A stretch of DNA of 16,548 nucleotides from Escherichia phage vB_KppS-Ant (LR881103); one strand, 5' to 3'; shown: positions 2,036-12,289, counted from the stretch's first letter. A program made the numbers and translations. The notes: generated by a model not told the origin, from the sequence alone.

Positions 2036-4333
2036 ATGGCAGGTAAATCATTAGGCACTCTCACCATTGACCTGATCGCCAGAACCGGCGGTTTTGTCCA
2101 GGGTATGGATAAAGCCGAACGTTCATCACAAAAATGGCGGGATAACGTTAAAAAAGATGCCGCAGCCGTGGGTTCAGCCCTTGCTGCTGTTGGCACAGCC
2201 GCAGCAGCGGCGGCTATCGGTGTTAGTGCCGCTGGTATTGCACTGGTAAAAAATACCTCAGAGCAGATCACTGAAACTGATCGCTGGGCTAAATCGCTAA
2301 AAATGTCTACTCAGGATTTGCTTTCATGGCAGTTTGCTGCTGAGAAAGCAGGGTTGACCGGGGATAATATTGCTGACATCTTCAAGGATATTAACGATAA
2401 AGTCGGCGATGCTGTCCTGAACAAGTCAGGTGAGGCTGCTCAGGCTCTGGATACTCTCGGGCTTTCAGCTGAGAAACTGGCCCAGCAATCCCCTGATAAG
2501 CAGTTACTGGCTATCAGCTCGGCATTGCAAAAAATCCCCTCTCAGGCCGGGAAAACTAATATCCTCGAAAGCCTGGGGAATGACCTGTCAAAAATGCTGC
2601 CGTTGTTCGACAACAATAACGAGAAGCTGAAGCAGTTTATCCAGCTGTCAAAAGATTTTGGTGTCGCTCCGCCCCAGGAGGATATTGATAACCTGGTTAA
2701 GGTTAATCAGTTTTTCCAGGATATTGAGAGCAGTGCACAGGGGTTAAAGATCGAGATTGCCAGTGGCCTGGCTAAAGTAGACCTCTCACCGATTCAGGAT
2801 GGACTTGATGATATCCGGGATGTGTTTACCGATCCTGCTGTTCTGTCAGGTCTGGCAAAGCTGGTCGGAGGGATGGCGGAACTTGTTGGCTGGATGGGTA
2901 AGCTAAGTTCTGAATCTGCTAATTTTCTCAGCCATATATTTGAAGTGCCTGACAGGTTTAAGGCGGGTGGCTGGTACGAGTTTGAAAAAAATCAGAGATT
3001 AGGAGCAATAGCAGATACGCTTCAATCAGATTTAGGGGGAATAACTAAACCATCTTCAAACTCTGAGTTGCCAATAAATAATAACCTGCTCCCCGGGCAG
3101 AGCAATCAGAAACAAACTCAAAAGCCTGATGCTGAGGCAAAAAAACTTGAAAGTGCCTATAAAGCCGTAGAACAGTCATATTTAAAGCAAATTGCGCTGG
3201 TGGATCAGCTAACCGGGAAAACCAAAGACGCCACTGAAGTAGAAAAACTACATTTCGATTTAGTATCTGGTCGTCTGGTTGGGATAAATAAAGAACAGCA
3301 AATCAGGCTTGAGGGCTTGGCCTCAGAAGTTGATAAATATAACGCGTTGTCAAAATTTCGAGATTTGCAGGATGAGTTATTAACTCCAGAAGAAAAATTA
3401 CTTAAAACGACGAGAGAACGTTTTGAAATATTAAAAGATATTCAGGGAATGAAGGGGATCAGCCCTGATGAATATAAAAAAGCAGCAGAAGCCATATCGA
3501 AAGATTCATTTACAGATATGCCTAAATTTAGTGGTCTTGATCCGATGTTTGGCGGTCAATCTGGAGAGTTAAGAAAAGTTGATGACGCACAGAAAGAACA
3601 GGAAAAATGGTATCAGAATCAGCTCGATTTGCTGGAACAGAACCGTCAGGCACGTTCTGACCTTAATGATGAGTGGGATGCCAGAGAGCTTGAACTGAAG
3701 AAAAAACACCAGGATGAAATGAATAAGCTCGATGAAGCCCGTAATCAGCTGATGTTGAGCAGTGTTGTCGATGGGCTTGGTTCTATGGTGGATTTGACCC
3801 GTACAGCTTTTGGTGAGCAATCAGGAGTATACAAAGCCGCGTTTGCAGTTCAGAAAGCCGCGGCTATTGCTCAGTCTGTTATCGCTATCCAGCAGGGGAT
3901 CGCGATGGCGGCTGCAAACCCTTTCCCGTACAACCTTGCAGCGATGGCCAGCGTAGCCGCTTCTACAGCCGGTATTGTGTCGAACATTGCGGCCGTGGGT
4001 ATGGCTCACGATGGTATTGATGCTGTTCCAGAAACCGGAACATGGCTTCTCCAGAAGGGCGAACGCGTAGTCACGGCGAATACCAGCGCGAAACTGGATG
4101 CGACCCTTAACCGTGTCGCCCAGCAATCCACTTCTGGTAATCAGATTTCCCAGGAATTTAATTTTAACGTTAATGGCGATCCTTCTGATGCTCAGATAGC
4201 CATGATGAAGAAAGCGGCCGCTGACGGTGCCAAGATGGGGTATCAAAAGGCGGTCAATTCAGTAATTACTGGTCAGGGTGATTTGCACAAGGCTCTGATG
4301 ACGAAAACTAATTCAGGCAGAAAAATAGGGTGA
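2036..4333 (+). CDS. Tail tape-measure-like protein (lambda gpH family architecture)
   Basis: 765 aa; N-terminal GTLTIDLIARTGGFVQGM segment followed by an Ala-rich hydrophobic stretch; long central charged Lys/Glu/Gln-rich helical region; C-terminal hydrophobic Ala/Gly-rich block then GIDAVPETGTWLLQKGERVVTANTS, which resembles the conserved C-terminal motif of lambda-family tape-measure proteins; strong RBS (AAGGAG) upstream. Confidence 0.65.
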   Translation: MAGKSLGTLTIDLIARTGGFVQGMDKAERSSQKWRDNVKKDAAAVGSALAAVGTAAAAAAIGVSAAGIALVKNTSEQITETDRWAKSLKMSTQDLLSWQFAAEKAGLTGDNIADIFKDINDKVGDAVLNKSGEAAQALDTLGLSAEKLAQQSPDKQLLAISSALQKIPSQAGKTNILESLGNDLSKMLPLFDNNNEKLKQFIQLSKDFGVAPPQEDIDNLVKVNQFFQDIESSAQGLKIEIASGLAKVDLSPIQDGLDDIRDVFTDPAVLSGLAKLVGGMAELVGWMGKLSSESANFLSHIFEVPDRFKAGGWYEFEKNQRLGAIADTLQSDLGGITKPSSNSELPINNNLLPGQSNQKQTQKPDAEAKKLESAYKAVEQSYLKQIALVDQLTGKTKDATEVEKLHFDLVSGRLVGINKEQQIRLEGLASEVDKYNALSKFRDLQDELLTPEEKLLKTTRERFEILKDIQGMKGISPDEYKKAAEAISKDSFTDMPKFSGLDPMFGGQSGELRKVDDAQKEQEKWYQNQLDLLEQNRQARSDLNDEWDARELELKKKHQDEMNKLDEARNQLMLSSVVDGLGSMVDLTRTAFGEQSGVYKAAFAVQKAAAIAQSVIAIQQGIAMAAANPFPYNLAAMASVAASTAGIVSNIAAVGMAHDGIDAVPETGTWLLQKGERVVTANTSAKLDATLNRVAQQSTSGNQISQEFNFNVNGDPSDAQIAMMKKAAADGAKMGYQKAVNSVITGQGDLHKALMTKTNSGRKIG

Positions 4334-4548
4334 TGAAGATGACAGAACTTGAAAGTTTATTTTACGAGATGATGCCGGGTCATATTGCCCACGCGATGAA
4401 AATTGAAGGGGCAAAAATTCTGGCAGAAAGTACGCAGAAAGAGGCCGAACGTCAGTCAACGTTAACCGGCCTGTCTTCTGAGCTTATCATTCAAACTGCG
4501 ATTCAGGCGATCTCTATGCAGATGAAAAACTGGCAAGTAGTCCACTGA
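4330..4548 (+). CDS. Hypothetical small protein (72 aa), start overlaps the tape-measure stop
   Basis: ORF with GTG/ATG starts overlapping the upstream TGA; no recognisable motif. Confidence 0.4.
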   Translation: MMKMTELESLFYEMMPGHIAHAMKIEGAKILAESTQKEAERQSTLTGLSSELIIQTAIQAISMQMKNWQVVH

Positions 4549-4597
4549 CAAGGTTATGGCCCTCAATCGGGGGCCACACTACCAACTGAGGTGCTGC

Positions 4598-4786
4598 ATG
4601 TTAAAAAGAGAAGCTTTAGAGTCTGCCATTATCAGTGCAGCAAAATTGCAGGGGCATGATCTTAACGGGCGAGATCGTCTTATGGTGCGTAATCGCGTTG
4701 CCACTTGCTTGGCTGCGAAAGAACGCCACCGGCAAAGGATGGATGCCGAACCGTATCAATGGAGAAAGCCGGAAAGGCCAAGGTGA
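4598..4786 (+). CDS. Hypothetical small basic protein (about 62 aa; internal ATG of ORF 4556..4786)
   Basis: GAGG 6 nt upstream of ATG at 4598 (the ATG at 4556 has only a 2-nt spacer after AAGG); followed by an intrinsic terminator. Confidence 0.3.
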   Translation: MLKREALESAIISAAKLQGHDLNGRDRLMVRNRVATCLAAKERHRQRMDAEPYQWRKPERPR

Positions 4787-4803
4787 TGAACCCAACCAAT
4801 CAA

Positions 4804-4837
4804 AGCACTGGACTATGTTCTGGTGCTTTTTTATTTG
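4804..4837 (+). terminator. Rho-independent terminator (hairpin then T-tract)
   Basis: agcactgg...ctggtgc stem followed by tttttta ttt immediately after the 4786 stop. Confidence 0.5.
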
Positions 4838-4849
4838 TGCGAGCCAACG

Positions 4850-4871
4850 TGTATAAACATATGTATAAACA
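4850..4871. repeat. Tandem pair of TGTATAAACA decamers (left copy of a 22-bp composite repeat)
   Basis: tgtataaaca-ta-tgtataaaca at 4850..4871, repeated 21/22 at 5083..5104. Confidence 0.7.
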
Positions 4872-4875
4872 CTAA

Positions 4876-4915
4876 TAAAAAAGGCGCTTCCCCATGCCGA
4901 AGAGCGCCTTTTTAA
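4876..4915. terminator. Bidirectional intrinsic terminator-like hairpin flanked by A-run and T-run
   Basis: aaaaaAGGCGCT...AGCGCCTTttt: 8-bp stem (4881..4888 with 4903..4910) with A-tract upstream and T-tract downstream. Confidence 0.5.
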
Positions 4916-5082
4916 ACAAGCATTTAACTGATTGGTATCAGTTCATGCCGTACTGTCATATTAGCTGTTTTCATGCTTTTAGATGATTTTAATATTCATA
5001 TAATAATCAATGTGTTGTATAAATTCATGCCTGTATATTGTTCCAGTGTTTTTCTTTGTTTATGCTATTATGCAAGCAATTC

Positions 5083-5104
5083 TGTATAAACATTTGTATA
5101 AACA
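5083..5104. repeat. Tandem pair of TGTATAAACA decamers (right copy), just upstream of the integrase start
   Basis: tgtataaaca-tt-tgtataaaca at 5083..5104; candidate integrase arm-type sites. Confidence 0.7.
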
Positions 5105-5122
5105 CTTTGGGCTGGGTGGTCT

Positions 5123-6343
5123 ATGGCTGGCGAACTTAACAAACTGAGCGACAGGAAGTTAAAGGGATTACATGGTATCCCGGCCAGTAAGATTGAGTTC
5201 TATGCTGATGGTGCCGGGCTGAGCGCCAAGGTAACTAAAGCTGGTGGTATTAGCTGGGTGTTTACTTACCGACTCGACGGGCAGAAGCTGCATCGTCTTA
5301 CTCTGGGACGATACCCGGATATGAGCCTCAAAGAGGCCCGTTCTTCGCGTGATAAATGCCGCCAATGGCTGGCCTCAGGTAAAGATCCAAAGCACCAGTT
5401 GGCGCTGACCACTCAGGAAACGCTTAAACCGGTCACTGTTAAGGAAGCTATAGAATACTGGATACGCGAATATGCAGAAGAGAACCGCGCGAATGTTGAA
5501 CGGCACAAAGCGGAGCTGCGAAAACACATTTATCCTTATATAGGGAAAATGGCGCTCGCTGACTGTGAAACACGATACTGGCTTGACTGCTTTGACAGGA
5601 TGAAAAAGAAAACTCCAGTCGCCGCAGGTTATGTGTTCCAGATGTGCAAACAAGCCCTGAAATTCTGCCGGGTTCGTCGCTATGCTGTGAGTACCGCGCT
5701 TGAAGATTTAACAATTCCAGATGTCGGTAAAAAACAGGCAAAAAAAGACCGGGTATTAAACGATAAAGAGGCTGGCGATTTATGGGCTGCCATTTCCTCT
5801 GGCACTTGCTTCATGCCTTACTACACCAGGCTACTGACAATCTTAATGGTGTTTGGGTGCCGAACGCAGGAGGCCAGGCTATCAGAGTGGAGTGAATGGG
5901 ATATGGATGCCTGGGTCTGGACAGTTCCCAAAGAGCACAGCAAGGGCGGCGAGAAGATTGTAAGACCTGTGCCGGATGCCATGCGCAAATTCATTGAAAT
6001 ACTGCATGATGAAACGAAACGATCCGGCCTTTTGCTTGGGTCGGTTAAAGGCAGTGAAGCGGTAAGTCAGTGGGGCCGCGGTGTTTATAAAAAGCTGGGG
6101 CATTCTGAACCATGGACACTGCACGATCTAAGACGAACTTTAGCAACGCATATGAATAATATGGGTATAGCACCACACGTTGTCGAACAGTTGTTGGGGC
6201 ACTCAATGCCGGGAGTTATGGCGATTTATAACCGTAGTCTGTACTTGCCTGAGAAACTGGATGCGTTGAATAAATGGTATGACAGACTTGATATTTTATC
6301 AGGTGGATTCACTAACATTGTTTTGTTGAATAGGGCTGAATAA
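5123..6343 (+). CDS. int: Tyrosine site-specific integrase, P4-type (N-terminal arm-binding domain plus C-terminal catalytic domain)
   Basis: 406 aa; N-terminal L.D.K...GL.....G..W.F.YR..G.....LG.YP..SL.EAR...D pattern of P4-like integrases; C-terminal HDLRRT ... LLGH ... Y catalytic signature. Confidence 0.9.
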   Translation: MAGELNKLSDRKLKGLHGIPASKIEFYADGAGLSAKVTKAGGISWVFTYRLDGQKLHRLTLGRYPDMSLKEARSSRDKCRQWLASGKDPKHQLALTTQETLKPVTVKEAIEYWIREYAEENRANVERHKAELRKHIYPYIGKMALADCETRYWLDCFDRMKKKTPVAAGYVFQMCKQALKFCRVRRYAVSTALEDLTIPDVGKKQAKKDRVLNDKEAGDLWAAISSGTCFMPYYTRLLTILMVFGCRTQEARLSEWSEWDMDAWVWTVPKEHSKGGEKIVRPVPDAMRKFIEILHDETKRSGLLLGSVKGSEAVSQWGRGVYKKLGHSEPWTLHDLRRTLATHMNNMGIAPHVVEQLLGHSMPGVMAIYNRSLYLPEKLDALNKWYDRLDILSGGFTNIVLLNRAE

Positions 6344-6993
6344 TGACTAGTTTTCTAAAATTGGGTATTTTCGAGCGAGAAGCCAAAGCCCCGGAACTCA
6401 ATATTAAACAACTTGCACTACTTATGTGTGGGGTAGATCCGACAGTTAAAACTGCTGATATCCCTGAGGCGAAAGTTGAAGCTTACAATATATACTATCG
6501 ACAACTGAGTAGATGGTTATCAGCATCTAAATTATTTCGAGGTGGAAACTCAACAGCCTATCCCGCAGACTATATGTTTGCTCTGGCATATCCTCTTATT
6601 GATGAAGATATTACACCACAACCCATAAAGGACAGATGCCTTGCAGCGGTGGCTATAATTGCTAATCAAAACAAAGGAAAAGAGCATCTTTATGCTATGG
6701 GAGGGGATGAGCTTTTACAGGTCGGAATTGCATTGAAAAGCAGCAAACGCGGCTTGCATCGTAAAGAAGATGAAAAGGAATATAATGATAAATTAATGGG
6801 GATGCTGGTCAAGCTTATAGCACATAAGATAGGCCATTCGTTTGGCACCTCTAAAAAACCAAGCATCTCGGCTATTTTAAACGAACTATATAAATTAGCT
6901 GATGAGGAAGGTATATCTAAAACTGGATTATCCAAATCAGCAATATATGATAAAATTCGCAAGGCATTAAATTCGATTTATTATACGGAATGA
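6343..6993 (+). CDS. Hypothetical protein (216 aa), AT-rich cargo gene translationally coupled to int
   Basis: Start overlaps the int stop (TAATG); codon composition visibly more AT-rich than the neighbouring core genes; no recognisable catalytic motif. Confidence 0.55.
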   Translation: MTSFLKLGIFEREAKAPELNIKQLALLMCGVDPTVKTADIPEAKVEAYNIYYRQLSRWLSASKLFRGGNSTAYPADYMFALAYPLIDEDITPQPIKDRCLAAVAIIANQNKGKEHLYAMGGDELLQVGIALKSSKRGLHRKEDEKEYNDKLMGMLVKLIAHKIGHSFGTSKKPSISAILNELYKLADEEGISKTGLSKSAIYDKIRKALNSIYYTE

Positions 6994-7129
6994 ATATTAT
7001 TTTGCAGTGTTAGTGGGTGTTATTTATATTTCATGTGAAAATACTAATTAATTATATTTGTTGGAGCTTTTGGCGATTCTATGATCGCCAAGGAGATTCA
7101 ATTGTTATATTTGATGTTTATTACAGTTA

Positions 7130-7229
7130 CATTCAACAGCATTCAACAGCATTCAACAGCATTCAACGACACGTAACGACACGTAATGACACGTAACGGC
7201 ACCCGACAGCACCTAACAATACCTAGCTC
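7130..7229. repeat. Array of ten contiguous 10-bp units (CATTCAACAG x3, then progressively diverged copies)
   Basis: cattcaacag at 7130, 7140, 7150; cattcaacga, cacgtaacga, cacgtaatga, cacgtaacgg, cacccgacag, cacctaacaa, tacctagctc follow with strict 10-bp period. Confidence 0.8.
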
Positions 7230-7270
7230 CATCCACGGTCTCTACTAGGTCATTACTTGCTAACTTTTTC

Positions 7271-7337
7271 CATCTTTGTTCATGGTTATTCATCACTGTT
7301 CATCAGCGTTCATCATTGTTCATCTTTGTTATGAACA
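7271..7337. repeat. Second 10-bp-periodic array: TGTTCATC-type units (about 5 direct copies plus 1 inverted copy)
   Basis: catctttgtt catggttatt catcactgtt catcagcgtt catcattgtt catctttgtt then atgaaca; the unit is one mismatch from the TGTTCACC octamer clustered at 11720..11950. Confidence 0.75.
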
Positions 7338-7379
7338 ATCCAAGGCGAATCAAATCGTTAAAGAACGGTGATCTTCGGC

Positions 7380-7583
7380 GAGTTATTGAAATTCATGATT
7401 TTTTCTCTCGCGACAGCCGTTGAAATTACTGTGGAAATTGTTTTCAACAGGGGAGCGTTATCTTGATGGAATTTCTATCTTTCAATGGAATTGCGTGTTC
7501 TTTTAAAGGATTCCAGAATCAATGGAAATGCTGGTCGTTTATCCACTAATCTCTTCGCATAACATTGAAACAGTGGAGGCAGC
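7380..7583 (+). promoter_or_regulatory. alpA upstream regulatory region with dispersed TGGAA(A/T)T and TTGAAATT repeats
   Basis: gtggaaattg (7431), tggaattt (7467), caatggaattg (7483), caatggaaatg (7520); ttgaaatt at about 7386 and 7421; promoter not confidently placed. Confidence 0.3.
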
Positions 7584-7868
7584 ATGCAAAATATAACCTT
7601 TACCCCGCCAAATCCTGAACAACGCCGCACCCTTTTAGAAGAGTACGGCTTTAAGTTTGATCGCCGAATCCGTGAAGATGAATGCAGCGAGATCACCAGT
7701 CTTTCCCGTTCCAGCCGCTGGAAGATGGAACAGCAGGGGCGCTTCCCTCCGCGCTGTCACTTTGGCCGCAATAGCTGTGCTTGGCTTCTTTCGGATGTGC
7801 TCTGGTGGGTTCGTAATCCGCCAGCAGTAGAGAACGTCAATAACCCATACAGCCGTAAATCTGCTTAA
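7584..7868 (+). CDS. alpA: AlpA-family phage transcriptional regulator (excisionase-like HTH)
   Basis: 94 aa; ...SEITSLSRSSRWKMEQQGRFPPRCHFGRNSCAWLLSDVLWWVRN matches the AlpA-family HTH pattern; GGAGG RBS; position downstream of int as in P4-like and PICI elements. Confidence 0.7.
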   Translation: MQNITFTPPNPEQRRTLLEEYGFKFDRRIREDECSEITSLSRSSRWKMEQQGRFPPRCHFGRNSCAWLLSDVLWWVRNPPAVENVNNPYSRKSA

Positions 7869-7888
7869 TTAACCACAGGTAATCTGAG

Positions 7889-8581
7889 ATGAAAAAGATT
7901 AATGCCCTCCACGGGCAGGGATTCGCTCACCCTGTAGCCAGCCAGCACGATATTTCAGCGAACCGTAAACAGGTTATTGCCGGTGACTGGTCGCCCATTA
8001 ATCGCGGTGAATTTACGCTTGCCGATCTGGGGTTGCGCCACAACGGTAACGGGCTGGTGTGGCTGCGTTCCGGCGTGTCCGTGCATGAGGCAGACCATGA
8101 TGCAGGGATAAGCGGCAAGGACAAGACCAAAGGAAGGGTTAACGGCCTTCCTTTTGAATTTGTCGGCCAGTGGCAGGAATACCCGACTAAACGCAGCTTT
8201 GCCGTTTCAGTATCTACGGAACTACGGCGCCAGTATTACCCGGACGATGCCGCATTCAGTAAGGCAATGCGTGAGGCTGGTTATGTTCCGGTGCGCACTC
8301 GCAAACTGACCGGAAAGGATGCTCGTTTTTGGCTGTACCGTGTAACGGGCAATGATAAGGGGGTTGTCGCAGCAGAATCCGCGCCACACAAGGCTTGCGC
8401 GCCAGTTGTCCAGACCATATCTAAGCCTCATCCGTGGTTTAAGCGTGTGGCACTCGATGGTAAATGGCAGTACGTCTACGCAGATCACATCCGCTTTCTG
8501 ACTAAAAAGCGTCATCGCGTCGATGGTGTTCGGGTTCAGGGGTATACCGCTGGCGGGCTGAAAGTGGAGGCTATTGTATGA
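7889..8581 (+). CDS. Hypothetical protein (230 aa) between alpA and the replication module
   Basis: Protein-like composition; stop overlaps next potential start (ATGA); function not recognisable from sequence. Confidence 0.55.
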   Translation: MKKINALHGQGFAHPVASQHDISANRKQVIAGDWSPINRGEFTLADLGLRHNGNGLVWLRSGVSVHEADHDAGISGKDKTKGRVNGLPFEFVGQWQEYPTKRSFAVSVSTELRRQYYPDDAAFSKAMREAGYVPVRTRKLTGKDARFWLYRVTGNDKGVVAAESAPHKACAPVVQTISKPHPWFKRVALDGKWQYVYADHIRFLTKKRHRVDGVRVQGYTAGGLKVEAIV

Positions 8582-8593
8582 CAGGCAAAACAA

Positions 8594-8615
8594 AGGCGGC
8601 CATGCCGGGCCGCCT
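8594..8615. other. GC-rich hairpin (8-bp stem, 6-nt loop) right after the 7889..8581 stop; terminator-like for minus-strand readthrough
   Basis: AGGCGGCC-atgccg-GGCCGCCT; the U-tract lies on the minus-strand side (complement of aaaacaaa at 8586..8593). Confidence 0.35.
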
Positions 8616-8923
8616 GAGTCTCAACGCTTTACTGAAACATCGCCAGATTACCAGGCTTGCCGCTGGTGGTCAAACCTTGAGCCAACGAAATCCGTACGCA
8701 CAAATTAACCGCGTACGTTTAACGTACGGACATCGCAATCCATTGAAGGAACTTGATTATAACGAATCGTTAGAATCGGCTGGCAACAAACACGAACAGT
8801 ATTCGGGTTCGCCTGAACATCAACACTGCTTAGGTTCAGAGGTTCCGACGAATAACGTAGAGAGCTGCGAAGATAACCAACCCTCTTTAAGAGGTGAGCC
8901 TCTGCACAACGCATTAAGAGTTG

Positions 8924-8950
8924 CGCAAAACAACCCCTCTTTAAGAGGGG
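8924..8950 (-). terminator. Rho-independent terminator for the minus-strand RHH gene
   Basis: Minus-strand reading: CCCCTCTT-a-AAGAGGGG followed by ttgtttt, about 35 nt downstream of the 8982 stop; a second similar palindrome CCTCTTTAAGAGG lies at 8881..8894. Confidence 0.55.
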
Positions 8951-8981
8951 CAGTTCACAGCATTACGGAGAGTAACCCTGT

Positions 8982-9185
8982 TCAGCTTTCAGGTTCCGAT
9001 CTGGCTTTCTTGCGCTGCTCAGATTTGAGTTTGCGCCCGCAGGCATCCAGAACCCACGCAGAGAAATTAGCACCGGCGTTATCTGCTTTCTCTCGCTCTA
9101 CGCTGGCGTCAATCTCTTCAATAAGTTCGTGCGGAAATCGTATCTTTTTCTGCGCTGATTTAGCGTTTACTGCCTTAGTAGCCAT
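8982..9185 (-). CDS. Small ribbon-helix-helix-like DNA-binding protein (67 aa), candidate repressor
   Basis: KIRFPHELIEEIDASV...NFSAWVLDACGRKL fits a beta-strand / helix / helix RHH (Arc/CopG-like) layout; strong RBS AGGAGG 4 nt before ATG; own terminator; divergent from the replication operon promoter. Confidence 0.55.
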   Translation of the reverse strand: MATKAVNAKSAQKKIRFPHELIEEIDASVEREKADNAGANFSAWVLDACGRKLKSEQRKKARSEPES

Positions 9186-9198
9186 TTACCCTCCTGCG

Positions 9199-9271
9199 TA
9201 TAGTGAGGGTACACCATATCAGAAAAATAGCTTGACGTGTACCCCCACCGAAAATATAGTGGGGGTGCACC
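9199..9271 (+). promoter_or_regulatory. Near-consensus sigma70 promoter (TTGACG-17-TATAGT) overlapped by three operator-like 12-mers GTG(A/G)GGGT(A/G)CAC
   Basis: -35 TTGACG 9232..9237, 17-nt spacer, -10 TATAGT 9255..9260; 12-mers at 9203..9214 (+), 9237..9248 (inverted) and 9259..9270 (+); 17-bp direct repeat tatagtgagggtacacc / tatagtgggggtgcacc. Confidence 0.55.
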
Positions 9272-9363
9272 TTGAGGTTGAAGATACTCAAGATACAGCG
9301 AAGCCCGGCAGTGTTACCAGCACTAACCGGGCCTCTGACCACAACGTAACTGAGGCTTACATC

Positions 9364-9552
9364 ATGGCTTGTATACAGCATACCCAAACTCGCCCCAAAT
9401 ATCAGTATCGTTTTCTTGCGCTGAGCGCCATCGGGCGCAACGTCATTCACATCACCGCTACCACTGAGCGCGAAGCCCGTGAGCAATCACCGGATGGATG
9501 CGTGATGGTATTCGCTGGTCGTCTGCCAGTTCGGGAGGGGCACCATGCGTGA
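9364..9552 (+). CDS. Possible small leader protein (about 62 aa), 3' portion of the long ORF 8578..9552
   Basis: ATG at 9364 with GAGG 8 nt upstream, downstream of the 9232..9260 promoter; sequence MACIQHTQTRPKYQYRFLALSAIGRNVIHITATTEREAREQ... looks more protein-like than the upstream part of the frame. Confidence 0.3.
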   Translation: MACIQHTQTRPKYQYRFLALSAIGRNVIHITATTEREAREQSPDGCVMVFAGRLPVREGHHA

Positions 9553-9739
9553 GCCAATCAGCTTAGACCAGGCAGAATACAAATCAGCGCTGGCCGCTTC
9601 ACTCTTCGAAACCATCCTGGAAAAAGCCTCTGCTGAATGTTCAGAAACGCTGCTGAATCTGATTTCTATTGCGTGTGATTTTAATCAGGAAATTCACCGG
9701 GCATTAATCGCTGAGCTGGGTATGGGAGAAACGAAATGA
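9545..9739 (+). CDS. Hypothetical small acidic protein (64 aa)
   Basis: Translationally coupled (overlapping start/stop) within the replication operon; net acidic. Confidence 0.45.
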   Translation: MREPISLDQAEYKSALAASLFETILEKASAECSETLLNLISIACDFNQEIHRALIAELGMGETK

Positions 9740-9954
9740 GACAGGTTCCTTTTGAAGTCCTGATGCACGCTGAAAATGCCCTTTCTGAAAGCGAAGGAGC
9801 CTATGAGGTTCTCAGCATGTGGCTAGACAGTATTCCTGAAAGCGAGGAGTTCCACGGTGAAGCGTGCAAGGTAAGCGCAATCATGTCGCTGCTGCATAAA
9901 TCTATCGGCGAGCTGGTGAAAGCGCGGGAGGCTTACAGTGAAAAACGCGCCTAA
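9736..9954 (+). CDS. Hypothetical small acidic protein (72 aa)
   Basis: ATGA overlap with the upstream ORF; Glu-rich; overlaps the helicase start. Confidence 0.45.
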   Translation: MRQVPFEVLMHAENALSESEGAYEVLSMWLDSIPESEEFHGEACKVSAIMSLLHKSIGELVKAREAYSEKRA

Positions 9955-11689
9955 TGTGAAAACCCTCCCGCGCGACAAAATGGAGGAGGCCATCATCTTT
10001 GCTGGAACGGGAGCATGGAAAGCCGCTCAGGATTACCAGAAAGGGAAGGGCGAGCATGGAGACGATGTTCCGCCTGTGGTTCTGGATCACACCCAACTGG
10101 CGGAATTACCACACCTGCGCATTGTTGATAAAGGCCGTCGATTTGCCCGTGTCTGTCAGGCCGGGCTTATCGAGCAAAACCAAATCAGCATGATTGCAAA
10201 TAAGTTGTGTGAGGCTGGCGTTACCAATGCTGAGTTTATCAACGAACAAGGCGAGAAAGAGGACTGGACGCCATTGATGAAACGTCTGGAAGACGAGCCC
10301 CTTATGGTGACTACGAGGGGAAGTGCTACGCCAGCGCTTAACCAGATGGGAGCCAGCCAGCGCGGGGAAGTTCTGCTTGCTCATTACAATGGCAATCTGG
10401 CGATCCATGCTGATTCCGACACGGTTCATCATTACAACGGCGTGGTGTGGGTTCCGCTTTCGGATAAAGAGCTGCAGCGAGAAATGGCGCAGATTTTTAT
10501 TGATTCCGAAGTCGCCTATTCGCAGAACGCGATTAAATCCGCTGTCGATACAATGAAGCTGGGCCTCCCGGTAATGGGTAACACAGCCCGTAACCTGATT
10601 GGTTTCAGCAACGGGGTTTTTGATACCCGGTTAGGCCAATTTCGACCGCATGATAAAAAGGACTGGCTTATCGTTGCGAGCGAATTGCCATTCAGCGAAC
10701 CAGCAGAAGGTGAAACTCTGGCAACCCATGCGCCTAACTTCTGGAAATGGCTCCGCCGCTCTGTGGCGGATAATGACCGAAAAGCAGACCGCGTACTGTC
10801 TGCGCTGTTTATGGTGCTGGCGAACCGGTACGACTGGCAGCTGTTTCTTGAGGTAACGGGGCCGGGCGGAAGTGGTAAAAGTGTCATGGCTGAGATCTGC
10901 ACGATGCTGGCGGGCAAGGCCAATACGGTATCGGCGAGCATGGCGGCGCTGGAGAACCCAAGGGAAAGGGCGCTGGTAGTTGGCTATTCGCTGATTATCA
11001 TGCCGGATATGACCCGGTACGCTGGCGACGGCGCAGGGATTAAAGCTATCACTGGCGGGGATAAGGTGGCTATCGACCCAAAACACAAAGCGCCATATTC
11101 AACCCGTATCCCGGCGGTGGTGCTGGCCGTCAATAACAATGCTATGACGTTCAGTGACCGCAGCGGCGGTATTTCAAGGCGACGGGTGATTTTCAACTTC
11201 ACCGAAGTAGTGCCGGAAAACGAACGCGATCCGATGCTGGCCGAGAAGATTGAAGGAGAGCTTGCGGTAATCATCCGGCATCTGCTTGTGCGCTTTTCCA
11301 GCCAGAACGAAGCCAAACAGCTTTTGCATGAGCAGCAGAAATCAGAAGAAGCGCTGGCCATCAAACGTGAAGGGGATTCACTGGTGGACTTTTGCGGATA
11401 CCTGATGGCTTCGGTGGTTTGTGATGGAATGCTGATTGGTAATGCCGAGATCGTGCCATTCAGCCCGCGCCGTTATCTGTATCACGCTTATCTGGCTTAC
11501 ATGCGGGCCAATGGTCTTAGCAAGCCTGTATCGTTAATGCGGTTCGGTACGGATATGCCAGGCGCAATGGCTGAATATGGCAAGGAGTACCAGAAGCGCA
11601 AAACTAAAAATGGCATAAGATCGAACGTCACCCTGCATGATGATTCAGAAGACTGGATGCCAATGTGTACCGATACAACAAAAGAATAA
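9938..11689 (+). CDS. Replication protein: P4-alpha / D5-family SF3 helicase (phage/plasmid primase C-terminal type), probable origin-binding initiator
   Basis: 583 aa; Walker A GPGGSGKS about 300 aa in; D5_N-like region upstream (HYNGVVWVP); GTG start with GGGAGG RBS; iteron cluster immediately downstream. Confidence 0.8.
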   Translation: MKNAPNVKTLPRDKMEEAIIFAGTGAWKAAQDYQKGKGEHGDDVPPVVLDHTQLAELPHLRIVDKGRRFARVCQAGLIEQNQISMIANKLCEAGVTNAEFINEQGEKEDWTPLMKRLEDEPLMVTTRGSATPALNQMGASQRGEVLLAHYNGNLAIHADSDTVHHYNGVVWVPLSDKELQREMAQIFIDSEVAYSQNAIKSAVDTMKLGLPVMGNTARNLIGFSNGVFDTRLGQFRPHDKKDWLIVASELPFSEPAEGETLATHAPNFWKWLRRSVADNDRKADRVLSALFMVLANRYDWQLFLEVTGPGGSGKSVMAEICTMLAGKANTVSASMAALENPRERALVVGYSLIIMPDMTRYAGDGAGIKAITGGDKVAIDPKHKAPYSTRIPAVVLAVNNNAMTFSDRSGGISRRRVIFNFTEVVPENERDPMLAEKIEGELAVIIRHLLVRFSSQNEAKQLLHEQQKSEEALAIKREGDSLVDFCGYLMASVVCDGMLIGNAEIVPFSPRRYLYHAYLAYMRANGLSKPVSLMRFGTDMPGAMAEYGKEYQKRKTKNGIRSNVTLHDDSEDWMPMCTDTTKE

Positions 11690-11719
11690 AGGCGGGGAAA
11701 ATTAAAAGTAATGGGATAA

Positions 11720-11950
11720 GTGTTCACCACTGTTCACCATGTATAAAAATCATTAAATAACAATATGTTAATGGGTGAACACTTTTTTATGAAGTGTTCA
11801 CCAAGTATTCACCTGTTCACCCTGTTTTATCTTTTCCTCAGTTTGAGGTGAAGGGTTGGGTGAACACTAGTGAACACCTGAAAGAATAGTATTCACCCTG
11901 TAACTATATGAATTTAATTAATAAATTATCAAAGGTGAACAGGTGAACAC
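11720..11950. promoter_or_regulatory. Origin-like iteron cluster: at least 10 copies of TGTTCACC / GGTGAACA (and the TATTCACC variant) in both orientations in AT-rich DNA
   Basis: Copies at about 11721, 11731, 11774 (inv), 11794, 11805 (variant), 11814, 11859 (inv), 11869 (inv), 11889 (variant), 11934 (inv), 11942 (inv). Confidence 0.65.
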
Positions 11951-12095
11951 TTAAACGTATATTTTTTAATTTTATTGAGCAACGCAGGATCACTTCCAGC
12001 CTGGAATACCTGGGATCAATCATGGAACACGCACCGTGGAATATTAAAAGCTAATATTTTTGTAAATTATTTGTATTCATGTTTACTCATTCTTA

Positions 12096-12123
12096 CCCCC
12101 GTCTTTTGCGGGGGTTTTCTTTA
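12096..12123 (+). terminator. Rho-independent terminator between the replication and head modules
   Basis: CCCCCG-tcttttg-CGGGGG (6-bp GC stem) followed by ttttcttt. Confidence 0.6.
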
Positions 12124-12289
12124 TATTTTTCATGTATATCTTGAAGAGTGGCACTCAGACGTGAGCCGCCACTGGCCGTTAAGTCAAGCTGTAGCGAGTA
12201 CAGCCTGCGAGAGGCAGAAAAAGATTTAACGGCCTCCCCTCCAAGCGCTGGTTTCACGTCTCTACATTAATTGATACGGAAACCACTCC

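Follow-up and report, generated by a model that had tools for sequence, protein, structure and literature searches.

Arc and Mnt of the phage P22 immI region are small ribbon-helix-helix (RHH) proteins that act, with autoregulation, on operators over closely spaced divergent promoters. In the satellite P4, the promoter P_LE and the immunity element lie inside eta, with kil nested at the end of eta, and transcription from an activated promoter upstream is kept going across the region by translation (PMC10111431). Phage-inducible chromosomal islands (PICIs) of Gram-negative hosts have been described as transcribed in one direction, with the presence of a global repressor unclear, and the strategies of Gram-positive versus Gram-negative islands have been called "a mystery" (PMC6092414). 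The zone between alpA and the primase gene has been described in terms of Bro-network genes and immunity RNAs (PMC10111431), AlpA is needed for the induction of capsid-forming PICIs (cf-PICIs; 10.1101/2022.09.08.507074), and the cf-PICI papers mention no repressor (10.1101/2022.09.08.507074; 10.1101/2025.02.11.637232). Our own literature search, whose coverage was short on subscription journals, found nothing relevant on a repressor of Gram-negative PICIs. Here, we consider a divergent locus in a 16,548-nucleotide stretch of Escherichia phage vB_KppS-Ant (LR881103), which as a whole is called "the window" and which, from Pfam matches, the map of open reading frames (ORFs) and a chromosome match, is a complete cf-PICI (16.5 kb) in circularly permuted form.

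A preliminary description of the window had proposed a repressor-operator switch at this locus, i.e., a small RHH gene opposite a strong promoter built into three operator-like repeats. From sequence comparison, we consider the best explanation, at a probability of roughly 0.78, to be a self-regulated, type-specific RHH repressor of the icd-like/primase operon that would act through three operators on divergent promoters. The preliminary description had missed that the window is a whole cf-PICI, that alpA is in the same element, that the switch lies inside a stop-free long frame, and that a structured leader stands between the promoter and the first gene.

Predicted repressor gene, promoters, and operator sites

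The predicted RHH repressor is a 67-aa protein of the YlcI/YnfO (DUF3950) family encoded on the minus strand at 8982-9185. Its Shine-Dalgarno (SD) sequence AGGAGG, read from the sequence at 9190-9195 (minus strand), stands 4 nt 5' of the ATG, and an intrinsic terminator (8923-8951, minus strand; hairpin 8951-8933 plus a T run) follows 30 nt after the stop codon, so the strong ribosome-binding site and the dedicated terminator claimed at the outset are both in place. Divergent from this gene is the near-consensus sigma-70 promoter of the preliminary description, TTGACG-17-TATAGT, which we designate P_R (9232-9260, plus strand; 10/12 consensus positions). It had been said to drive a helicase operon, and the primase/helicase gene does belong to the same tightly packed set, though as the fourth gene rather than the first. 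The first is a 62-aa Icd-like ORF (9364-9552, plus strand; NCBIfam NF033153, E 8e-17; PHROG 1743), followed on the same strand by two small ORFs (9545-9739 and 9736-9954) and a D5-type primase/helicase (9938-11689; Pfam D5_N, DUF5906, Pox_D5), with start and stop codons overlapping those of the neighbours. P_R is the sole consensus-like promoter in 8600-9700, and since shuffles of the region yield a mean of 0.9 such matches, the match alone is not significant. It is credible because it is conserved, as TTGACN-18-TAnnnT, in 33 of 36 related loci. These loci were found by scanning a single genome for each species and lie in Klebsiella, Serratia, Pectobacterium, Brenneria, Rahnella, Pantoea, Xenorhabdus, Proteus, Providencia, Arsenophonus, Gilliamella, Orbus, and other Orbaceae.

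The three repeats are present and exact: GTGRGGGTRCAC occurs at 9203-9214 (+), 9237-9248 (-), and 9259-9270 (+), all within 68 bp. At one mismatch, four occurrences were found in the whole window where 0.19 would be expected, a count reached in 0 of 200 shuffles. Copies 1 and 3 are part of a longer 17-nt direct repeat (TATAGTG.GGGT.CACC). We treat the copies as predicted operators O1 (GTGAGGGTACAC), O2 (GTGGGGGTACAC on the minus strand), and O3 (GTGGGGGTGCAC), of which O2 and O3 form an inverted pair in the window. O2 begins at the last base of the P_R -35 hexamer and fills the spacer, and O3 extends from base 5 of the -10 over the expected transcription start. The remaining copy had been placed in the upstream region of the RHH gene, a correct position too weakly described: O1 lies over the -10 and start region of a predicted leftward promoter, P_L, the repressor's own. 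We infer from the sequence that TATGGT (9213-9218, minus strand) is the P_L -10, the last two bases of which are the first two of O1, so that O1 sits over the leftward -10 in the same register as O3 over the rightward -10.

In the mechanism that we propose, the 67-aa protein would read three 12-bp pseudo-palindromic GTG-N6-CAC operators on a back-to-back promoter pair. With O2 in the P_R spacer and O3 over its -10 and start, occupancy of both should silence the operon, turning off the Icd-like protein, the two small proteins, and the primase/helicase. Such repression would prevent both replication of the integrated satellite and synthesis of a division inhibitor that is likely toxic, while occupancy of O1 over the P_L -10 and start would place a weak leftward promoter under negative autoregulation. 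Repressor and operators together would constitute an exchangeable specificity cassette, existing as several "immunity types."

Comparison among relatives carries most of this argument. When E. coli elements and a Pasteurella satellite are added to the 36 scanned loci, the layout—a small gene divergent from TTGACN-18-TAnnnT—is kept in nearly all of about 40 satellite loci. Specifically, one 12-bp site starts from the last -35 base, a second starts from base 5 of the -10, and a third lies over a TAnnnT hexamer on the repressor-gene strand, in the same register, in 19 of 23 loci. The positions are held while the site sequence differs by locus (GTGTWTRTRCAC, TGTGCGCACA, GTGGGTNCACAC, GTGTTTAAACAC, TGTRCGGACA, TGTANGTACAC), and the sites of a locus change in concert: O2 and O3 agree at 10.47/12 positions within a locus vs. 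7.62/12 between loci (permutation p < 1e-5), a likeness that holds with one locus per strand class too. The sites also follow the protein. Loci with the same strand triplet (residues 12-14; QKK in the window) share O3 at 9.75/12, those with different triplets at 7.51/12, and an AKKN strand goes with TGTGCGCACA sites both in the E. coli O157:H7 island and in Rahnella. Two elements of different type occur in one genome both in X. kozodoii (loci L023 and L025) and in Serratia sp. Ag1 (L004 and L018).

The strongest evidence for pairing of the presumed repressor with its operators comes from natural swaps. In two E. coli elements, L001 and L002, int, alpA, and the primase gene are 97-98% identical to those of the window, and both the RHH protein and the repeats are different (GTGGAnTCCAC-type operators in L002). 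Homology with the window is interrupted at 8987-9408 (L001) and 9018-9254 (L002), and in L002 the leader and the Icd-like gene fall outside the swapped segment; the repeats therefore travel with the small gene, not with AlpA, Int, or primase. The module is widespread: of 5,426 complete genomes of E. coli, at least 579 contain Icd-like/leader segments. The switch proposed in the preliminary description thus has strong comparative support in the layout of about 40 loci, the concerted sites, the tracking strand residues, and the swaps, from which we infer DNA binding, repression, and autoregulation by the 67-aa protein.

The protein itself matches NCBIfam NF041551 (YlcI/YnfO) with 58.7 bits (cut-off 30; E 4e-16) and Pfam PF13132 (DUF3950) with 29.9 bits (cut-off 25), and an identical protein carries the NCBI name YlcI/YnfO. 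No functional study of DUF3950/YlcI/YnfO was found in the literature search, again with short coverage of subscription journals. An alignment of 31 homologues reveals an invariant K-x-I-R-F-P that precedes two helices joined by a loop; the alternating positions 12 and 14 of the strand-like segment are variable. The predicted structure, a modest model, is most like RHH repressors and has a strand-helix-helix topology of about 45 residues, consistent with a predicted RHH-type fold. Aligned with hhalign to a Pfam-HicB-type RHH protein occupying the same slot in an E. coli sister element, the protein is in register, though the link is weak (E 5.5e-4, probability 30%); a match to MobA is sub-threshold only. 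Outside satellites, lambda, Stx, and other lambdoid phages encode a YlcI/YnfO homologue (41% identity) beside cos, at the extreme right, divergent from nohD/Nu1 (e.g., 200-394 in L040, the lambda-like phage O276, and 15076-15270 in L044, an EDL933 prophage), with no Icd-like partner gene annotated alongside.

A long open frame and a structured leader

The switch lies within a 324-codon open frame on the plus strand (8578-9552) that begins on the stop codon of the preceding gene, orf230 (ATGA), runs antisense to the repressor gene, passes through the operators, the promoter, and the leader, and ends in frame as the Icd-like ORF. Third codon positions of this frame and of the repressor frame coincide. 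Among 32 loci, 18 have 185-467 open codons 5' of the Icd start and two others have 139-143 (20/32), AT-rich Gilliamella and Orbaceae included; the 18 contain 0 stops in this frame, against 8-38 in each of the remaining two. The protein sequence of the N-terminal part is not conserved across loci, and selection on the frame seems, from these sequences, to be for translatability. A conserved N-terminal peptide, KTKAA.PGR, was considered as a sign of a real protein and rejected, since a conserved leftward terminator hairpin (8594-8615), read on the plus strand, yields this peptide. The long frame is annotated as a protein in many records, and the small gene may have been overlooked because annotators often call the long frame instead. 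In the 10.7-kb Pasteurella "phage" Pmp7 (L039), for example, the long frame (4435-5109) is annotated "transcriptional repressor" and the small RHH gene on the opposite strand is unannotated. The O157:H7 Icd-like gene (L042, 4393-4641) is labelled "missing N-terminus" by the annotation pipeline PGAP.

Upstream of the frame is alpA (7584-7868, plus strand), of the activator/excisionase family (Pfam PF05930, E 5e-10; PHROG 2790), which is convergent with the repressor gene. Because alpA is in the same element, the repressor would add to AlpA control and not replace it. As to how repression might be lifted, our preferred guess, a tentative one drawn from analogy with P4, is that AlpA-activated rightward transcription, translated through the long frame, would bypass P_R; such read-through would also collide with transcription of the convergent repressor gene. 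Favouring this idea, besides the P4 precedent and the need for AlpA in cf-PICI induction, are the absence of stops from the long frame and the orientation of terminators: none is predicted on the plus strand in 6900-9700, and between alpA and P_R there are only leftward ones. Four leftward terminator-like hairpins (8951-8933, 8894-8882, 8728-8712, and 8615-8594) occupy the roughly 360 bp between the repressor gene and orf230, two of them copies of CCTCTTTAAGAGG.

The P_R transcript would begin with a 5'-proximal hairpin (9266-9297, plus strand; arms 9266-9276 and 9287-9297), comparable to hairpins seen by eye in other loci. Between promoter and first gene follows a conserved structured leader (9300-9362, plus strand), which consists of hairpin 1 (9300-9335), single-stranded CUGACCACAAC (9335-9345), and hairpin 2 (9346-9360), the latter with the SD GAGG (9352-9355) in its loop, just 5' of the ATG. 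The single-stranded motif is nearly invariant across loci (CUAACCACAAC-like; ACCACAAC motif). RNAalifold and pair counting gave pairing in 95.6% of cells and compensatory changes at 11 of 14 pairs, a result matched by 0 of 500 shuffles and set against 25-42% pairing in slid controls. A covariance model of the leader, R1, matched a Pasteurella satellite outside its training set with 62.9 bits.

The leader matches no family in Rfam 15, the only look-alike being the R1162 antisense-RNA region RF00043 (14 bits, E 4.7, with a gathering score of 55); no antisense promoter was found, and a blastn search of plasmids for this look-alike returned Icd-like loci only. An immunity RNA of the C4/CI type 5' of the Icd-like gene was rejected, as C4, isrK, and c4-a1b1 have no match in the window even at E <= 10, while all three are found in P4, which scores 74.9 bits. 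R1, in turn, has no match in P4. Homology between the Icd-like ORF and the P4 "cI" ORF was likewise rejected, there being no BLASTP similarity.

The satellite and its other genes

Pfam matches reveal the gene set of a cf-PICI—int, alpA, primase, capsid, protease, portal, head completion, HNH, TerS, and TerL—and no tail genes. TerS (23-379) and TerL (363-2024) lie at the left end of the window; the capsid, prohead protease, portal, head-completion, and HNH genes come after the primase gene, HNH lying rightmost. Between TerL and the att site, a 765-aa Ala/Gln-rich protein without a Pfam or other family match is encoded at 2036-4333 (plus strand), at the position where cf-PICIs are said to have variable cargo. 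The int gene (5123-6343, plus strand) is separated from alpA by a 216-aa ORF. We considered a helper-embedded PICI in which the 765-aa protein would be an interrupted tape-measure gene, and rejected it: TerS and TerL occupy the left end, and the K. pneumoniae ATCC 13883 chromosome, 99.88% identical to window positions 4873-12281, diverges left of 4873. It follows that the window represents the whole element in circularly permuted form. A 24-bp direct repeat (4850-4873 and 5083-5106) adjoins the presumed att junction. A long imperfect hairpin (11779-11889, minus strand) lies 3' of the primase gene, in the reported location of PICI replication origins and with only a chance-level Rfam microRNA match (E 0.99).

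ATCC 13883 is, we presume, the same strain as DSM 30104. Given the 99.88% match and this presumed equivalence, the window element is probably KpCIDSM30104 or near-identical to it. KpCIDSM30104 is the experimentally used element of He et al. (10.1101/2025.02.11.637232), whose description includes the gene slot after alpA as a variable region of unknown function. In the window, the slot is filled by orf230 (7889-8581, plus strand), a modular 230-aa gene product for which Pfam, NCBIfam, and PHROG searches gave no family match, no AntA, and no other recognisable domain; its end segments are common to longer proteins, one of them annotated AntA/AntB. Orf230 as a recognisable antirepressor was rejected, the AntA domain not being found. 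Across the window, L001, L002, L042, and L043, the slot is hypervariable: it is occupied by the 230-aa modular protein in the window and by an AntA-domain protein in L002, and has no gene at all in the O157:H7 and E2348/69 islands.

Alternative explanations and comparison with known systems

Several results weigh against a type-specific RHH repressor. P_L is without a recognisable -35. The RHH fold, anticipated from the start, is favoured by the topology and is weakened by a structure model of low confidence (pLDDT 65), a single-chain fused-dimer AlphaFold model at pLDDT 40.6, and the lack of any match for the 67-aa protein by Foldseek against the PDB or by a PDB sequence-profile search; the hhalign comparison with Arc, though in register, is not significant (E 0.014, probability 3%). 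The link between strand residues and operators has exceptions (e.g., Proteus EKKN operators differ from those of Rahnella AKKN), and common ancestry and the linkage of gene and sites on the DNA confound it in part. In L001, the swapped segment takes in the leader and the first 15 Icd codons as well, and repressor and leader are therefore not separated by this locus. The long frame is not fully open in 12 of 32 loci, and the read-through mechanism therefore cannot be universal. Finally, AlpA is reported to be sufficient to induce EcCICFT073, with no requirement for a repressor (PMC6092414).

This last result, obtained by over-expression of AlpA alone, also fits a purely local role, in which the small protein would be an antitoxin-like or autoregulatory damper of a toxic Icd-like gene, or an operon insulator, and the induction decision would be AlpA's alone. 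PGAP's name for the slot protein of some relatives, "HicB family antitoxin" (Pfam HicB), points the same way, as does the Icd-like nature of the first downstream gene. We nonetheless hold this to be quite unlikely: the genes are divergent, unlike co-transcribed type II toxin-antitoxin pairs, the primase/helicase, too, is driven from the operator-covered promoter by way of overlapping ORFs, and a near-consensus promoter with three operators points to tight silencing of the replication operon as a whole. An extension of the repressor model, a SaPI-like (Staphylococcus aureus pathogenicity island) master repressor that a helper-phage protein, or an AlpA-dependent orf230 in the "Bro/Ant" slot, would remove from its operators, agrees with the divergent repressor/replication layout of SaPIs (PMC6092414) and with the need of KpCIDSM30104 for a helper prophage in induction (10.1101/2025.02.11.637232). 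The slot after alpA could also supply such an antirepressor, given its hypervariability, the AntA domain of the L002 version (PF08346, E 1.5e-23), and the end segments that orf230 has in common with an AntA/AntB-annotated protein. Yet orf230 has no AntA or other recognisable domain of its own, the O157:H7 and E2348/69 elements have the RHH module and no gene between alpA and the repressor, and a 67-aa RHH protein has little room for a sensor domain, and we regard this reading, too, as unlikely, although such an antirepressor is the main alternative to read-through for lifting repression.

A different reader of the repeats (AlpA, the Icd-like or long protein, the primase, or a host or helper protein), or a role for them as RNA structure, with the minus-strand ORF a by-product of the long gene, seems to us very improbable. 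The long plus-strand frame is kept open and is often the annotated gene, PHROGs label Icd-like families "transcriptional repressor," and the O2/O3 pair is inverted in the window. In most loci, however, O2 and O3 are direct copies, not inverted, and O2 precedes the transcription start; the long frame lacks protein-level conservation in its N-terminal part; and the small ORF matches a curated family (E 4e-16) with homologues in lambda and Stx phages that lack an annotated Icd-like partner. Moreover, AlpA, Int, and primase stay 97-98% identical while the repeats are replaced, and the L002 leader and Icd-like gene are outside the swapped segment.

If the type-specific repressor is real, it would provide a function for DUF3950, a family so far function-less, add a missing layer to the PICI induction model, and fill a stated gap in satellite biology. 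It could explain the silence of a near-consensus promoter ahead of a division inhibitor and a primase, and as a specificity module it would be relevant to satellite co-residence and to engineered PICI vectors; the apparent identity, or near-identity, of the window with KpCIDSM30104 makes for a tractable laboratory system. The full combination—that Gram-negative PICIs, including KpCIDSM30104, have an overlooked DUF3950 RHH immunity repressor in exchangeable types, plus a P4-type collision switch and leader RNA control of the Icd-like gene—we consider doubtful.

Among the known systems, the repAC control region of plasmids RSF1010/R1162 combines a small repressor, F, with a countertranscript over the repA leader (Rfam RF00043). 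The window resembles it in having a predicted small repressor over a replication operon and in the order of leader elements (hairpin, CUAACCAC motif, SD hairpin, AUGGCU). It differs in that the leader match is far below the gathering score and no antisense promoter was found. The small protein also differs from RHH antitoxins of the HicB/TacA/ParD/CopG type, the window gene being divergent from its target operon and without a co-transcribed toxin.

The preliminary description had likened the switch to the master repressors of SaPIs. The divergent layout does agree with Stl and Rpr of SaPIs and Gram-positive PICIs (PMC6092414), where a repressor gene is likewise divergent from an excision/replication operon and quiescence lasts until a helper acts, but size, fold, and int orientation do not. 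Stl is a much larger helix-turn-helix protein with a helper-protein-binding domain, whereas the window protein has 67 aa and is RHH-like; int is on Stl's side and co-oriented with it, whereas in the window int and alpA, both plus-strand genes, lie upstream of the repressor gene and converge on it. In overall plan, the likeness is to the P4 immunity region (PMC10111431), with its AlpA-like gene (vis), strong promoter inside a long ORF, structured leader, small genes, and primase. The window also appears to reproduce the P4 arrangement in which the long ORF begins on the stop codon of the upstream gene and ends in a short nested ORF (eta/kil). Unlike the window, P4 has an RNA as its immunity factor (CI RNA/seqA) and no antisense RHH gene.

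As for the immunity proteins of P22, the window protein has no significant sequence similarity to Arc (probability 3%) and belongs to a different family, YlcI/YnfO (DUF3950); its presumed target is a satellite replication/Icd operon, not an antirepressor gene, and its sites are three 12-bp GTG-N6-CAC repeats. It resembles Arc and Mnt in being a small, predicted RHH-type protein, in its sites over a divergent promoter pair, where binding and autoregulation are predicted, and in a predicted strand that lies in register with that of Arc (PQFNLRWPREVL vs. AQKKIRFPHELI).

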